Of a stretch of 64,000 nt of DNA, positions 2,404-8,473 are shown in pieces. Positions within the stretch are counted from its first letter, which is position 1; each line of letters opens with the position of its first letter. The DNA lies in IMG/VR virus record IMGVR_UViG_3300037424_001682, positions 14,115 through 78,114 of that record; one strand, given 5' to 3'. Position numbers and translations under genes: made by a program. This DNA is from a virus (taxonomy: Duplodnaviria; Caudoviricetes). Under the pieces are notes generated by a model that was given only the letters and a program-made list of their open reading frames with translations, was not told the origin of the DNA and did no database searches.

Positions 2404-3167
2404 CACAAAAATATAAAATACGACCAATACCAACTAAAGATATTATAATTCCAATTGCAATATCTAGCGATAATTCATTAAGTGGGTTACAAGATGATAT
2501 TGAAGATTATGTTGAAAGAGAAACGGGGTTATCAATTAATAGTGCGGATGACGGTGAAAGTTTTAGATATTTACCAACGGGAAACACCACAATGATTTTT
2601 GAATTTTATAGCGGTGGGACATATTATACTGATTTATTTGCTGCTGGTTTTAAAAATTCAGATATAGGATATACAAATCCAATTCTTACAAGTTTTTATT
2701 TATTAACATTATTTGATAGTAGAAATAGAAGCTCACAATTAAAATTAAATAACGGTTTTTTAAACGGATTTAACTTTATTGAATCAAGTGGTAACACCAT
2801 TTATGATATCACAAGTAATAAGGAGTTTTCTAATTTATATATTAGAAACGATTATATTAATACATTAACTGGTCTTACTACCTTATATTTCACATTATCG
2901 TTTTTTAATGGTAAAACAGGTGAAATTCAATTGTTTTTTAATAATGATTTATCTGGAGACACTACAGATAATCGAAATTATTTTGGAATTGTTTTAAATC
3001 CAATTAATAAAACTTTTTCTTGGAGTGGTTCTACAATTAATGCAAGAGAAATAATCAATACAGGATTTACTCAAACATATAATCAAACTGTTGATAAATT
3101 TCAAAATCAAAAACCATTATTTCCTAGTGGAAATGCGTTATCAGGCAATACTTATATTACAATTTAA
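2397..3167 (+). CDS. Probable virion structural protein
   Basis: 256 aa ORF overlapping upstream stop; similar composition. Confidence 0.45.
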   Translation: MLTQKYKIRPIPTKDIIIPIAISSDNSLSGLQDDIEDYVERETGLSINSADDGESFRYLPTGNTTMIFEFYSGGTYYTDLFAAGFKNSDIGYTNPILTSFYLLTLFDSRNRSSQLKLNNGFLNGFNFIESSGNTIYDITSNKEFSNLYIRNDYINTLTGLTTLYFTLSFFNGKTGEIQLFFNNDLSGDTTDNRNYFGIVLNPINKTFSWSGSTINAREIINTGFTQTYNQTVDKFQNQKPLFPSGNALSGNTYITI

Positions 3168-3937
3168 ACGTATATCCCAAATCGTGGAGGTCTGCTTGTT
3201 CTGGTAACAATAAATTCTTTTTCGTCTTGAAGAAATCCAAGAAGTTTTATTTTGTATGATGTTACAAAATATCGATCACCATCAATATTTTCAATCGTAT
3301 TTTCTTCATCCATACTATCAAGCAATATTGGCATGGGATTTCCTTTTATGAAAACATATTCTTGAATTGACGCAAAATTACGTAAAGTTTGTTCATCATA
3401 TTTGTTAATATCTATTTGATATTTACTAAATAATCGAACATCATATGTTAAATCAACGTTTACTGGTTCTGGCATCTTTAATCTTAAATTGATGATTTCA
3501 CCATCTTCTGAAATTGGTACATCAACATATCTAAATACTCTTCCTTGTGCAACACGAGCCTGACCACCAATTCTAGTGCCCTTTTCTTTTCGAGTTCTAC
3601 GTATTGTTATTATGGGAAATATAACGTTTTTATCTCCATCAGAGTATTTCCAAGTTTTTTGAAACTCCCCCCAACGTTCATTACTTAAATAAAATGTTGG
3701 TACTTGTTTACCATCAAGAACCAATTTCATATTACCGTTTTTTACATAATCTAAAATTGCTGTATCTAAATTTTTCAATTCTACAGTTCTCGGTAAATAT
3801 TTGGTTTTTTTATCAGTATCAATCATAAGTTTTTCTATTCGATCCATACCATAATGTAAAAACTTATCTCCAACCTTTGGTGGATTGATGTTGGTATTAT
3901 ATTTAAAGTTAGGATGTTTCTTTTTTGGTAATGCCAT
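3164..3937 (-). CDS. Tail terminator / sheath stabiliser-like protein (T4 gp15-like)
   Basis: FPIITIRRT and EPVNVDLTYDVRLFSKY segments resemble gp15-like tail completion proteins; late motif at 3951-3960. Confidence 0.55.
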   Translation of the reverse strand: MALPKKKHPNFKYNTNINPPKVGDKFLHYGMDRIEKLMIDTDKKTKYLPRTVELKNLDTAILDYVKNGNMKLVLDGKQVPTFYLSNERWGEFQKTWKYSDGDKNVIFPIITIRRTRKEKGTRIGGQARVAQGRVFRYVDVPISEDGEIINLRLKMPEPVNVDLTYDVRLFSKYQIDINKYDEQTLRNFASIQEYVFIKGNPMPILLDSMDEENTIENIDGDRYFVTSYKIKLLGFLQDEKEFIVTRTSRPPRFGIYV

Positions 3938-4011
3938 TTTACGTTTTTTATATAAATACTATTGATTTTAGCTTGTGGGATATAAGTGATAAATTAAATT
4001 AGTAAAAACAC

Positions 4012-4042
4012 TTGACAAATAAAATAAAAAGATTTACTTTTG
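4012..4042 (+). promoter_or_regulatory. Early/host-sigma promoter TTGACA-N17-TACTTTTG
   Basis: TTGACA 4012-4017 and TAnnTTTG 4035-4042 (Bacteroidota -7 element), same 17-nt spacing as five other sites. Confidence 0.75.
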
Positions 4043-4161
4043 TAAAGTCAGTAATAAAACAATAAACATAGGGTTGGGTTCATCCGAATTAACGCTTTTG
4101 AATAGTAGACCATACAGTAGGGATTATTATGCAGAAAACTTGATTTGAAACACTAAACAAA

Positions 4162-4467
4162 ATGAAAGATAAGATAAGAGAAAATGCTAAAAAATACTTC
4201 GATGAAGAATTAAGTGGAGAACCATTATACCAAGATTTAGTAATTGATTGGCTTACTGAATTTGCAAAACAGCAAGTAAAATTATTTGCTATACCTGTTG
4301 TTGTGCGTTCGTTGCCGATTGGTGATGAATTACATAAAACAATAGACGGAAGGTATATTCTCAGATGTATATCTTTTCCAATAGCCGATAAATTTAATAC
4401 TCACCCTGAAAAAGTGACGGACGTAGTTGAGCAGATAATAGAGAATTTGAACAGGGTAAGGAAATGA
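4162..4467 (+). CDS. Hypothetical protein, likely fused across an attC-like right end
   Basis: 101 aa; internal GTTGTGCGT (4300-4308) is complementary to ACGCACAAC just after its stop. Confidence 0.6.
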   Translation: MKDKIRENAKKYFDEELSGEPLYQDLVIDWLTEFAKQQVKLFAIPVVVRSLPIGDELHKTIDGRYILRCISFPIADKFNTHPEKVTDVVEQIIENLNRVRK

Positions 4468-4468
4468 C

Positions 4469-4586
4469 GCACAACGTTGAGTATATGAGGCGTTGCACCA
4501 CAAAAATTAATAAAATGAAACGATTATAATTTTAATATAAATTTAAAAAAGACCACAGAGGCAATGCCTTATATACATTGTTATGT
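4469..4586 (+). other. attC-like recombination site 1
   Basis: GCACAAC-N5-GTATATGAGGCGTTG ... CAATGCCTTATATAC-N3-GTTATGT; imperfect inverted repeat directly between a stop codon and the next ATG. Confidence 0.65.
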
Positions 4587-4599
4587 GGCGTTAATTATT

Positions 4600-5004
4600 A
4601 TGAAAAGATTAGAAAAAATTAAAACAAATGAAACCATTTCTGAAATGTTTTTCAGATTAAAAGAAGAATGCGAACAACCAATTACAAAATTAAATTATAT
4701 TGAATTTTTATATAAAATTTTACCTAAAGGTTCTAATATACCAGAAACAAACTTATATGGCATATTACCTGATGGTAGTAAAATACTTCAATATCCTTCA
4801 TTAAATTCTCAATCTATTCTATTTGGTGAACCTGAAACTTATATTCAAAAATTAGAAGAAATAACCAATAAAGATAATTTTTTATGTTGGTGTAATTATA
4901 ATGATTATACCATATGGTGGAATGATAATAATCTTCAACTTGATATGTCTCCATTTCTATCGTGGGTCGATGTTGATATGAACTTAGAGCCAATTAGAAG
5001 GTAG
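4600..5004 (+). CDS. Hypothetical cassette-like protein
   Basis: Start re-assigned to ATG 4600 (MKRLEK) because the listed start 4564 lies inside the attC-like arm. Confidence 0.6.
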   Translation: MKRLEKIKTNETISEMFFRLKEECEQPITKLNYIEFLYKILPKGSNIPETNLYGILPDGSKILQYPSLNSQSILFGEPETYIQKLEEITNKDNFLCWCNYNDYTIWWNDNNLQLDMSPFLSWVDVDMNLEPIRR

Positions 5005-5017
5005 TCGGTAGTATTGT

Positions 5018-5148
5018 GCCTAACGATTTGTATAAATTTCAGGTTGGGATTAAAGTGTGAAGCCCTATCAACCTGCCAAAATGATGCAAGTAACACGACT
5101 ATTTCAAGTTGCTAACAAGCCCCAACTTGAATTTATACAGGGTTATAG
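5018..5148 (+). other. attC-like recombination site 2
   Basis: GCCTAAC (RYYYAAC)-N5-GTATAAATTTCAGGTTGGG ... CCCAACTTGAATTTATAC-N3-GTTATAG, with one extra-helical T; same geometry as site 1. Confidence 0.7.
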
Positions 5149-5167
5149 GGCGTTTATTTTTATCGAA

Positions 5168-5341
5168 ATGAAAAAATATAAAATTACTTTTCAAAATGGA
5201 GAATCAGTTACAGTAAATGGTAAGTTGATTACGCAATGTGAAGCGACAGGGCAAATTTTTATCTATTTTGAAAATGACCCAACGTGGAAAAATATTTCTG
5301 CGATTGTTCCTGCATCAGCCTGTGTTGTTGTTATTGGCTAA
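5168..5341 (+). CDS. Small hypothetical cassette-like protein (57 aa)
   Basis: Start re-assigned to ATG 5168 (MKKYKITF); listed start 5057 lies inside attC-like site 2. Confidence 0.55.
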   Translation: MKKYKITFQNGESVTVNGKLITQCEATGQIFIYFENDPTWKNISAIVPASACVVVIG

Positions 5342-5570
5342 ATGCCCTATAACTATTATATATAAAAACACATATATAACTAACTGATTATGAATGCAAA
5401 ATCAAAAGCAACTCTCACAAAGATGAAAATTTATATGAGAGTTAAGAATTATTCTCGCTTAGGATCTCGATGAAAAAAGAAAAGAAAGATTTCATAGGAT
5501 TTTCTATGAAGTCGGAACTATTTTACGTATATAATATTATAATATAAATTTATGAAAAAATAGATAGACA

Positions 5571-5897
5571 ATGCTAATCAAAAAAGAAACAAAAGGAGAA
5601 GTTGGTGATCAATTTATTGAAGCAATATTTGAATCATCAAACATATTAATGACTACTTATTTTCCAGAAAAAAATAAACTATATATTCACTTTAATAGAG
5701 GTGGTACATATTCATATACTAATGTAACAGAAAATATTTATAATGCGTTTGAAATGGCAGATTCTCAGGGTAAGTATTTTTTAACCGAAATCAAAAAAAA
5801 TCCTAATAAATATCCATACGCAAAAGAATTCTCTCTTACTAACAGTGAAATCAATAATGCAAAACAAGTAATTAAGGAATATAATGAACGCAATTGA
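5571..5897 (+). CDS. KTSC domain protein
   Basis: SSNI...Y...LYIHFNRGGTYSY.NV...Y..F..ADSQGKYF pattern typical of KTSC. Confidence 0.8.
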   Translation: MLIKKETKGEVGDQFIEAIFESSNILMTTYFPEKNKLYIHFNRGGTYSYTNVTENIYNAFEMADSQGKYFLTEIKKNPNKYPYAKEFSLTNSEINNAKQVIKEYNERN

Positions 5898-6877: not shown

Positions 6878-8473
6878 TTATGCAAAAACTTTGTCTTGCT
6901 TAATATCATAACACTCAACTATATGGCTTTTTATCTTGGATTTTGATAATTTCTTTGGTCTATATAATCCCTTTTCTTTAATCATCAACGATTTCCTTAG
7001 AACATCTAAGACCATCCTATCCTCAATCATTTTAGCTGAATGAGTATCCGCATTGGACTTGTGTCCACATGAGATACATTCAAATTCTTCTTGTACTTTC
7101 CTGTTATCCCTTGTTACACTACCACAACATTCACATGTTTGAGATGTATAATAAGGTTGAACGAAAGTAACTTGTATGTTATTCTTATCCCCAATACTCT
7201 TTACAATATTCTTTATTGAAGATAGATTTAGTAATTTAACCAATCTTGAATATTTAAATCCCTCATATTCATCACTCTTTGTGAATGATTTACCGAACAC
7301 CCCCAAATCTTCAAGTATTAAATGATTAAATCCCTTATCTTTTGTTTGTTTAACTAAGACACTTGATTTCCTTTTAAGCATATCAGTTATCTTAATCTTA
7401 AACTTTGTAAGTTTAATCGTATCTTTTATAGATAATTTACTGTTTTTCTCTTTTCTTGTTTTTTTATCATCAAGCTCTTTTAAAAATTTTACATAATCAT
7501 TAAATAAATCTCTATCATAATCAATAATATTACCATATTTATCAACAAATAAATTATGTTTAACATTAATATCTATACCATAATAATCTGTTTTATATTT
7601 AACTTCATTAATAAATTTTGGTTTTGATAATATAACTCTTATCTTATTTCCTTCAAAACATATTTTATATGAAATTACCCTTTGTCCTTTCTTATTAGGT
7701 TTTTTATAATAATATTTTAAATTACCATGATAATTCCTTGAATATTTTATTGGTATATGAATTTTACCGTCATCTGTTTTTTGTCCTGATAAAGAAATAA
7801 AACAATTATATAGAGATTCTTGGTTTTTATTCTTATTTATTATGTTAATTTTTTGTTCAGTACAAGAAGTAAACGATAATGAAGTAAAGGTTATTGAATG
7901 TTTTGTTAAACTATTTATTATATTATTTTGTTTATTTTTAACTAAATTAAGTAATCTATTTTCATATTTATCAATATAATACAAAACATCATTTCTTAAT
8001 TCTGTATTATTATTTTCTTTAAGATAATCAATTAATTTATCATGATAATATTTAACAAGATAACTAACTACCTTAGTTAATTTAGTTTCTTTAAACACTA
8101 TCTCTTTATCTTTTAAATCACCTTTTTTATTATTTTTTGTATTAACTTTATAATAAGCATATTTTATTTCTTTTTGTATTTTTGATTTACTTTTTTTATT
8201 AAAAGAACTTATTTTATTTTCATAAGCAACGTATGTATCTGATATTGCATTAGAAATATCTTGATTATTACAAGAATTTAATTTACATCTAAAATGATTT
8301 ATCCAATCAAATTTAGATAAGTTAAAGAAATGTATAGGATTATTACAAACTTCAGTAGAAATGTTATTTTTAAAATCTCTTAATTGCAATGCTTTATTAT
8401 ACAAAATATCATATTTACCTATATTTAGGTTATCAGAATAGAAAGAATATGATTTTTGTGTAAGTTGTGGCAT
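6878..8473 (-). CDS. tnpB: TnpB RNA-guided nuclease (IS607-associated)
   Basis: RuvC motifs GIDINV, LILEDL, NADTHSA; zinc finger CECCG...CISCG; YTSQTC. Confidence 0.9.
   Translation of the reverse strand: MPQLTQKSYSFYSDNLNIGKYDILYNKALQLRDFKNNISTEVCNNPIHFFNLSKFDWINHFRCKLNSCNNQDISNAISDTYVAYENKISSFNKKSKSKIQKEIKYAYYKVNTKNNKKGDLKDKEIVFKETKLTKVVSYLVKYYHDKLIDYLKENNNTELRNDVLYYIDKYENRLLNLVKNKQNNIINSLTKHSITFTSLSFTSCTEQKINIINKNKNQESLYNCFISLSGQKTDDGKIHIPIKYSRNYHGNLKYYYKKPNKKGQRVISYKICFEGNKIRVILSKPKFINEVKYKTDYYGIDINVKHNLFVDKYGNIIDYDRDLFNDYVKFLKELDDKKTRKEKNSKLSIKDTIKLTKFKIKITDMLKRKSSVLVKQTKDKGFNHLILEDLGVFGKSFTKSDEYEGFKYSRLVKLLNLSSIKNIVKSIGDKNNIQVTFVQPYYTSQTCECCGSVTRDNRKVQEEFECISCGHKSNADTHSAKMIEDRMVLDVLRKSLMIKEKGLYRPKKLSKSKIKSHIVECYDIKQDKVFA

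Follow-up and report, generated by a model that had tools for sequence, protein, structure and literature searches.

Does a row of small genes in a phage genome, separated from one another by long hairpins, represent an integron-like gene-cassette array, and if so, which enzyme could have operated it? Integrons, the classic example of a device by which genes are stockpiled and shuffled, are generally regarded as IntI-dependent and as nearly missing from Bacteroidota. The question is raised by positions 4279-5473 of the window analyzed here, a stretch of 64,000 nucleotides belonging to a phage contig of 78,114 bp (27.7% G+C), whose completeness was estimated by CheckV at 27%. Because relatives of the flanking gene occur in contigs as long as 349 kb, the contig of the window is considered part of a large phage genome; it has Bacteroidota-type promoters. 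We assign a probability of about 80% to the reading in which this segment is a decayed member of an integron-like gene-cassette system of Bacteroidota and their phages, run by a Xer-like recombinase.

Hairpin sites, cassettes and array end of the window

Two imperfect inverted repeats of equal geometry, each placed between a stop codon and the next ATG, had been pointed out in the initial annotation and were confirmed from the sequence. Hairpin site 1 (4465-4596, plus strand; stem-loop 4476-4579), which has a class I interior, fills the gap between the stop codon at 4465-4467 and the ATG at 4600. It is composed of AAC (4473-4475), a 5-nt spacer, GTATA (starting at 4481), TATAC (4572-4576), a 3-nt spacer and GTT (starting at 4580), and its 16-bp stem includes two G.T wobbles, at stem positions 7 and 12. 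Hairpin site 2 (5014-5158, plus strand; stem-loop 5025-5141), with a class II interior and a stem of the type also present in L116, fills the gap between the stop codon at 5002-5004 and the ATG at 5168, and carries AAC at 5022-5024, GTATA at 5030, TATAC at 5134-5138 and GTT at 5142. The cores span 4473-4582 and 5022-5144, which gives AAC-to-GTT distances of 110 and 123 nt, respectively. The consensus beside the core is ATAAC/GTTAT and not RYYYAAC/GTTRRRY. The hairpin base is followed by a T-rich run, with the ATG located 8-25 nt beyond.

Covariance model R1, built from an alignment of 57 copies found in unrelated phage contigs, recognized site 1 with 109.2 bits (E 1e-19) and site 2 with 86.5 bits (E 7e-15); site 1 is additionally supported by its folding (z = -4.3) and by compensatory changes in the alignment. 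No site other than these two was detected by the R1 scan of the 78-kb contig. The composite motif occurs at just two adjacent places in the entire contig, and the half-motifs taken singly are found at chance frequency (4 vs. 3.55 expected, and 3 vs. 2.68). A search of Rfam (E up to 10) returned a full-length match of WsnRNA46 (Wolbachia sRNA 46) to positions 4464-4596, with 21.6 bits against a gathering score of 65 (E 0.55), which was taken as a chance match.

The class I interior has some coding peculiarities. An ATG within the right arm of site 1 provides orf2 with a spurious N-terminal extension of 12 residues (4564-4602), the ORF being called from 4564. L160 has the same leader peptide on an ORF unrelated to orf2 that follows a class I site (3001-3270, minus strand), so gene callers will add it to any gene located behind such a site. 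The class I loops (e.g., L022, L024, L026, L029 and L032) also contain a conserved mini-ORF of 8 codons, with synonymous and conservative changes between copies; the copy of the window (4508-4522) is frameshifted and has 4 codons.

The two sites delimit three cassettes. In cassette 1 (body 4300-4475, plus strand, from GTT to AAC), the first 9 bases (4300-4308) are perfectly reverse-complementary to the last 9 (4467-4475); the chance of such a pair, according to our own estimate from base composition, is approximately 4e-4. Cassette 2 (4580-5024, plus strand) carries orf2 (4600-5004; 134 aa, no known family) and its ends are not complementary. Cassette 3 (5142-5353, plus strand) carries orf3 (5168-5341; 57 aa, no known family), and a repeat search identified its ends as an inverted repeat matching at 14 of 15 positions (5142-5156 and 5339-5353). 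Both complementary pairs, as well as the exception in the middle, had been noted correctly: cassettes 1 and 3 obey the cassette rule and cassette 2 fails it. A degenerate tail-like stretch within orf2 (4874-4904, 74% similar) was considered as the reason for this failure and was judged too weak. Neither Pfam nor PHROGs yielded a match for orf1, orf2 or orf3; no usable match for the cassette genes was found in Atlas, and no relatives of orf2 or orf3 were found in IMG/VR.

Upstream of cassette 1, a relic of a hairpin right arm, ending with TATAC and followed by a 5-nt spacer (4279-4299, plus strand), was distinguished; it matches the right arm of the stem class of L072, L111 and L145. The predicted protein of orf1 (4162-4467; 101 aa) is a chimera, whose residues 1-40 are 93% identical to a 78-aa zinc-ribbon ORF of L292-L294. 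The first 38 codons of this small zinc-ribbon protein gene (4162-4275, plus strand) are fused in frame to cassette 1, and the nucleotide sequence homology ends near position 4275. The remainder of the first hairpin has been deleted, and the deletion joined cassette 1 to the start of another gene.

At the opposite end, the AAC of the last cassette (ending at 5353) is followed by a spacer (5354-5389, plus strand) of approximately 36 nt, conserved between the last AAC and the recombinase ATG in L117, L089, L065 and the bacterial L190, with which the window is collinear. Behind it lies a 5' remnant of a Xer-like recombinase gene (5390-5473, plus strand), with 22 alignable codons (5390-5455) and a stop after 27 codons, which shares 54.5% identity with residues 1-22 of the L117 enzyme (tblastn, E 1e-5 within a 401-nt subject). 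Further tblastn matches to the recombinase within 5482-5531 were weak and mutually overlapping in different frames, and were discarded. Since the collinearity with intact systems continues past the AAC at 5353 through the spacer and 22 recombinase codons, the place described previously as a third site truncated after its AAC does stop after AAC, but it is an attI-like array end, not a damaged hairpin, and the recombinase gene has been deleted. A putative attI-like site is thus present between the cassettes and the recombinase gene, defined by position only, as no activity data are available. The claim that the window lacks an integrase holds for intact genes, given that the search for PF00589 in the window and in the 78-kb contig gave no match, but it overlooked the 22-codon remnant at 5390-5473. 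Taken as a whole, the window contains a row of three cassettes joined at folded hairpin sites, worn down and broken at both ends.

Sediment metagenome contigs from the same samples pile up on positions 5319-5520. They share 5354-5445/5457 with the window and diverge from it upstream at 5348-5354, exactly at the AAC/spacer junction, which indicates that other genomes in the sediment carry the same spacer with different last cassettes. The depth of these contigs over 5319-5520 is approximately 10-fold that of the surroundings (131 vs. 11.7 in run X2). Both the spacer and the start of the recombinase gene occur in many other contigs, several of which part from the window again at 5445-5457, close to the end of its remnant. 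None of these contigs showed an excision joint located at a core site. The only joint seen (4108 to 5459, run X5) has flanks of 27 and 43 nt with less than 95% likeness and is not positioned at a core, and it was rejected as too weak to represent an empty site.

The whole block is an accessory insertion, as judged from 30 relatives of the phage in which the KTSC gene directly follows an equivalent promoter, R1 sites are absent and the entire 1.6-kb block is missing. A Bacteroidota-type promoter (TTG, 19-nt gap, TAnnTTTG; 4012-4042, plus strand) was recognized in the sequence and by a regular expression scan, in which it was the sole host-type promoter within 3900-5650; it probably drives the entire block as far as the KTSC gene. 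The proposed resemblance of this promoter to Pc is correct insofar as it is the only host-type promoter of the block and can drive the cassettes, but it lies at the end far from the recombinase. The three cassettes are probably fixed passengers transcribed from this promoter together with the KTSC gene, and the array has probably lost its mobility, except where a related recombinase is supplied in trans. In some relatives (L046, 6750-7150; L054, 6740-7330; reverse-complemented loci) the same promoter is separated from the KTSC gene by other small genes, which have a duplicated promoter on their flanks and no hairpin sites, and represent a different, moron-like gene addition at the same spot.

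Related arrays, the cassette rule and the moving unit

The family of sites was explored at increasing breadth. Among GenBank phages, blastn with site 1 identified one partial copy, in a 462-kb uncultured phage (LR756500.1), in which a second good copy was not found. A 20-base pattern derived from site 1 retrieved 11 IMG/VR contigs, where an element of approximately 135 nt ends at a start codon, with a different gene each time. The pattern common to both window sites was found in 104 stretches, about 60 of which show the full architecture, with several unrelated interiors. Besides the two places in the 78-kb contig, the motif search suggested at the outset led to sites elsewhere that are arranged in one-strand arrays. 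With model R1, 279 matches were obtained in 100 sources, forming one-strand arrays of up to 11 sites spaced by 300-800 bp. Arrays are present not only in phages, but also in the chromosomes of Flavobacteriaceae (Tamlana, Maribacter, Polaribacter and Kordia) and in Bacteroidales MAGs. Those of the Maribacter litopenaei (L221) and Tamlana fucoidanivorans (L227) chromosomes and of Polaribacter sp. (L231) comprise 5-8 sites, and their cassettes are longer than the phage ones (median 870 vs. 338 nt); L221 contains an exact 476-nt cassette duplication inside one array.

The 57-copy alignment defines a stem of 16 bp with 93.9% of the stem cells paired and compensatory changes at 12 of the 16 pairs. 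At stem positions 7 and 12, a left-arm G nearly always faces a right-arm T, and over all stems the gene-sense strand carries 55 wobbles vs. 6 on the other strand. Bulged (extrahelical) bases, which in the L box of integron sites mark the recombining strand, were not seen in these stems; in their stead there are the two fixed positions, read as G.T in the gene sense and as A.C in the antisense, which may or may not serve the same purpose.

The cassette rule was examined with a threshold of at least 6 complementary positions between the 8 variable bases that follow the GTT of a site and the 8 that precede the AAC of its successor. This threshold was reached at 82 of 126 phage steps and at 42 of 51 steps in Bacteroidota chromosomes (177 steps in total), whereas the two ends of the same site reached it in 3 of 195 phage and none of 86 bacterial cases, the value for random pairs being 3.9%. 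Pairing of each site's own two ends was accordingly rejected (3.0 of 8 positions matched vs. 2.9 in random pairs). The observed complementarity of tail and left end is the signature of units able to close into circles, and is accounted for neither by an RNA function nor by homologous recombination. The circular intermediates themselves are inferred, and the rule is broken in about a third of the phage steps.

The boundaries of the moving unit were documented by three kinds of observation. (i) In the cassette common to L024 and L117, as well as in the cassette duplicated in a Maribacter array, the upstream hairpins are 100% identical and the downstream ones 61-66%. (ii) A block of identity between L069 and L073 begins exactly at AAC|G and extends for approximately 360 nt. 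(iii) At the array ends, the recombinase gene is preceded directly by a left end with its AAC, and a hairpin is lacking there. Consequently, the moving unit, in gene sense, consists of a hairpin, a tail, a gene and a left end. The crossover falls on the AAC side in gene sense, which equals G|TT on the complementary strand, where the unit becomes a canonical integron cassette; it may be inferred from this geometry that the well-folding gene-sense strand corresponds to the integron "bottom" strand. The boundary inference rests on a handful of informative pairs. Of direct evidence of recombination there is none, as neither circles nor excision joints were observed.

The hairpins could instead be intergenic RNA or regulatory elements (processing sites, terminators or promoter-terminator modules similar to PeSLs), with the genes between them shuffled by ordinary homologous recombination in the absence of a dedicated recombinase. 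Their location between a stop codon and a start codon, the G.U nature of the wobbles on the sense strand, the T-rich run past the hairpin base and the fixed short distance to the start codon are all compatible with such a function, and gene shuffling at PeSL motifs has been described in T4-type phages (PMC2839356, PMC4122927). Moreover, T4-type PeSLs, the nearest analogue known from phages, are likewise stem-loops that separate small variable genes, in the hyperplastic regions of large phage genomes, with mini-circles proposed as intermediates (PMC2839356, PMC4122927). Those elements, however, hold an early promoter and use homologous recombination, whereas the TTG...TAnnTTTG promoter was found neither inside site 1 nor inside site 2, and sites of the window family obey a site-specific cassette rule and accompany a recombinase. 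If the genes were shuffled by homologous recombination, there would be no reason to expect cassette starts to pair with their own distal ends in preference to the neighboring arm, breakpoints placed exactly at AAC|G, or arrays that end at a recombinase gene behind a conserved spacer. For these reasons the purely regulatory explanation is very unlikely, although an additional RNA role of the hairpins is not excluded.

The array-adjoining recombinase and comparison with integrons

In L117, L089, L065, L114 and L125, the last site is closely followed by a gene, oriented like the cassette genes, for a tyrosine recombinase of 268-270 aa. These proteins are mutually 52-59% identical, and more distant homologues adjoin the bacterial arrays. 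The best NCBIfam match of the enzyme is XerA (177 bits). The IntI model TIGR02249 gave 138 bits, with the match split in two stretches, against a cut-off of 265. The nearest solved structures are those of XerA (4a8e and 5hxy), and the alignment to IntI4 (2a3v) extends only to residue 179. The array-adjoining enzyme is therefore Xer-like and not IntI. Two complete array-bearing phage contigs contain no tyrosine recombinase, and so the assignment of the enzyme to the arrays rests on its adjacency in other genomes.

The central proposal of the initial annotation, a phage-borne cassette array recombining at the AAC/GTT core through a tyrosine recombinase, is supported by the cassette rule across 177 steps, the homology breaks at the core, the recombinase beside intact arrays and the absence of the block from relatives; the comparison with related phages that it called for showed 30 relatives without the 1.6-kb block. 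Mobilization at G^TT by a host or phage enzyme was also part of that proposal. It applies to the complementary strand, but in gene sense the exchange lies on the AAC side, and the enzyme is a phage-encoded Xer-like recombinase whose gene was once present at this locus. The search for an IntI-like recombinase, in contrast, failed: no protein of five array-bearing Bacteroidota genomes exceeded the IntI family cut-off, and the Xer-like enzyme was found beside the arrays instead.

This bears on the possibility that the sites are true integron attC sites (a CALIN) mobilized by an IntI integrase of the host. The likeness is considerable, especially to CALINs and to sedentary chromosomal integrons with homogeneous attC sites. 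It comprises (i) one-strand arrays of single-gene, promoterless cassettes; (ii) imperfect-palindrome sites with the R''/R' geometry, i.e., invariant AAC and GTT, an unpaired spacer, a paired L box and a variable loop, as in attC-type sites; (iii) a cassette start complementary to the cassette's own distal site, in line with the cassette rule; and (iv) an array end at a hairpin-less site beside a tyrosine recombinase gene, with one strand folding better than the other. HattCI has also called an attC in P12002L_attC1, a short member of the family of the window sites (PMC9892861, Table S3).

There are also differences from integrons. In place of IntI there is a Xer-like enzyme of 268 aa without the IntI-specific insert. 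The cassette genes are read in the direction of the recombinase gene, with the promoter at the opposite end of the array, whereas in classical integrons Pc lies beside intI and the cassette genes read away from it. The R-box pairing covers 9-11 bp with spacers of 5-6 and 3 nt, and two fixed G.T positions occur in place of extrahelical bases. The hosts are Bacteroidota and their phages, and IntegronFinder 2.0 reports essentially no integrons in Bacteroidetes except in Salinibacter (PMC9024848). Mobilization by a host IntI is most unlikely in view of the orientation of the genes, the IntegronFinder result for Bacteroidetes, the lack of proteins at the IntI family cut-off in the five array-bearing Bacteroidota genomes, the split, low-scoring match of the adjoining enzyme to TIGR02249 with its partial alignment to IntI4, and the unverified IntI1 junctions of P12002L_attC1 (PMC9892861).

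The closest published material also concerns phages. A screen of 10,705 phage genomes by Qi et al. (2023) yielded 3 integrons and 17 small attC clusters, one of them in Polaribacter phage P12002L; the sites, 2-3 per phage and without an associated recombinase, were treated as integron attC serviced by bacterial IntI (PMC9892861). P12002L_attC1 is a short-loop member of the family of the window sites, and it is the one phage site with unverified IntI1 junctions (PMC9892861, section 3.4). One cassette of this family is the gp35 DNA methyltransferase gene of P12002L (L298, 29240-30060, minus strand): P12002L_attC1 precedes it, and the GTT tail is complementary to the AAC end located past the stop codon. 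No long-type site was found by the R1 scan of P12002L.

The suggestion that the elements are small, non-autonomous, MITE-like transposable elements with terminal inverted repeats, landed in intergenic gaps, is in keeping with imperfect palindromes with conserved ends in many unrelated genomes and with a TnpB-like gene nearby (6878-8473), but it is barely conceivable given that the elements of an array always lie on the same strand as the flanking genes, target-site duplications were not seen and the ends of one element pair worse together than with the ends of its neighbors. The gene in question (minus strand), located approximately 1.4 kb past the array, encodes a 531-aa TnpB/Cas12f-like protein (Pfam Cas12f1-like TNB domain; PHROG transposase), and no link between it and the hairpin sites was found. 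Modules of the Xer/dif type differ from the present arrays in having 28-bp dif-like sites (11-6-11), not hairpins of 110-125 nt.

A proposed cassette-exchange system of Bacteroidota and their phages

The integron-like system run by a Xer-like recombinase can be outlined as follows. A cassette, in gene sense, is composed of (i) a folded site of 110-125 nt, with a 16-bp stem, two fixed G.T wobbles and a variable interior; (ii) a GTT tail; (iii) one small promoterless gene; and (iv) a left end that terminates in AAC and is complementary to the cassette's own tail. Pairing of tail and left end would allow the cassette to close into a circle. The Xer-like recombinase, encoded past the last cassette behind the attI-like spacer, is presumed to act on the folded single strand, with strand exchange at the AAC/GTT core; both its catalysis and the single-strand mechanism are inferred. 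The folding strand would be the gene-sense strand, and incoming cassettes would be inserted beside the recombinase gene. In the phage of the window, the recombinase gene has been cut to 22 codons, and the first hairpin has been lost with the fusion of cassette 1, which would have left the array frozen.

No paper describing these arrays or their Xer-like enzyme was found in the literature, and the system appears to be undescribed. More tentatively, and with clearly less than even odds, we suggest that Bacteroidota and their phages share one cassette-exchange system separate from integrons, in which a short Xer-like recombinase acts on a folded gene-sense strand and phages and hosts draw small accessory genes, plausibly for defense and counter-defense, from a common pool. 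In the same proposal, the hairpins may have a second role in the transcript, as signals for processing or translation, in view of the G.U pairs on the sense strand and the fixed distance to the start codon. Only one match between a phage cassette and a bacterial cassette was found at the protein level (37% identity), and thus a common cassette pool has not been demonstrated.

The copy in the window adds a stage of decay to the picture, that of an array frozen by the loss of its recombinase gene and distal site, with a cassette fusing to another gene. A parallel system of this kind, with a different recombinase and inverted gene orientation, and present in large phages and in chromosomes of Flavobacteriaceae, would give a direct handle, through outward PCR and recombinase assays, to harvest such genes. 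It would also explain part of the "ORFan" regions of jumbo phages, and would widen the known routes by which phages gain and lose small genes.
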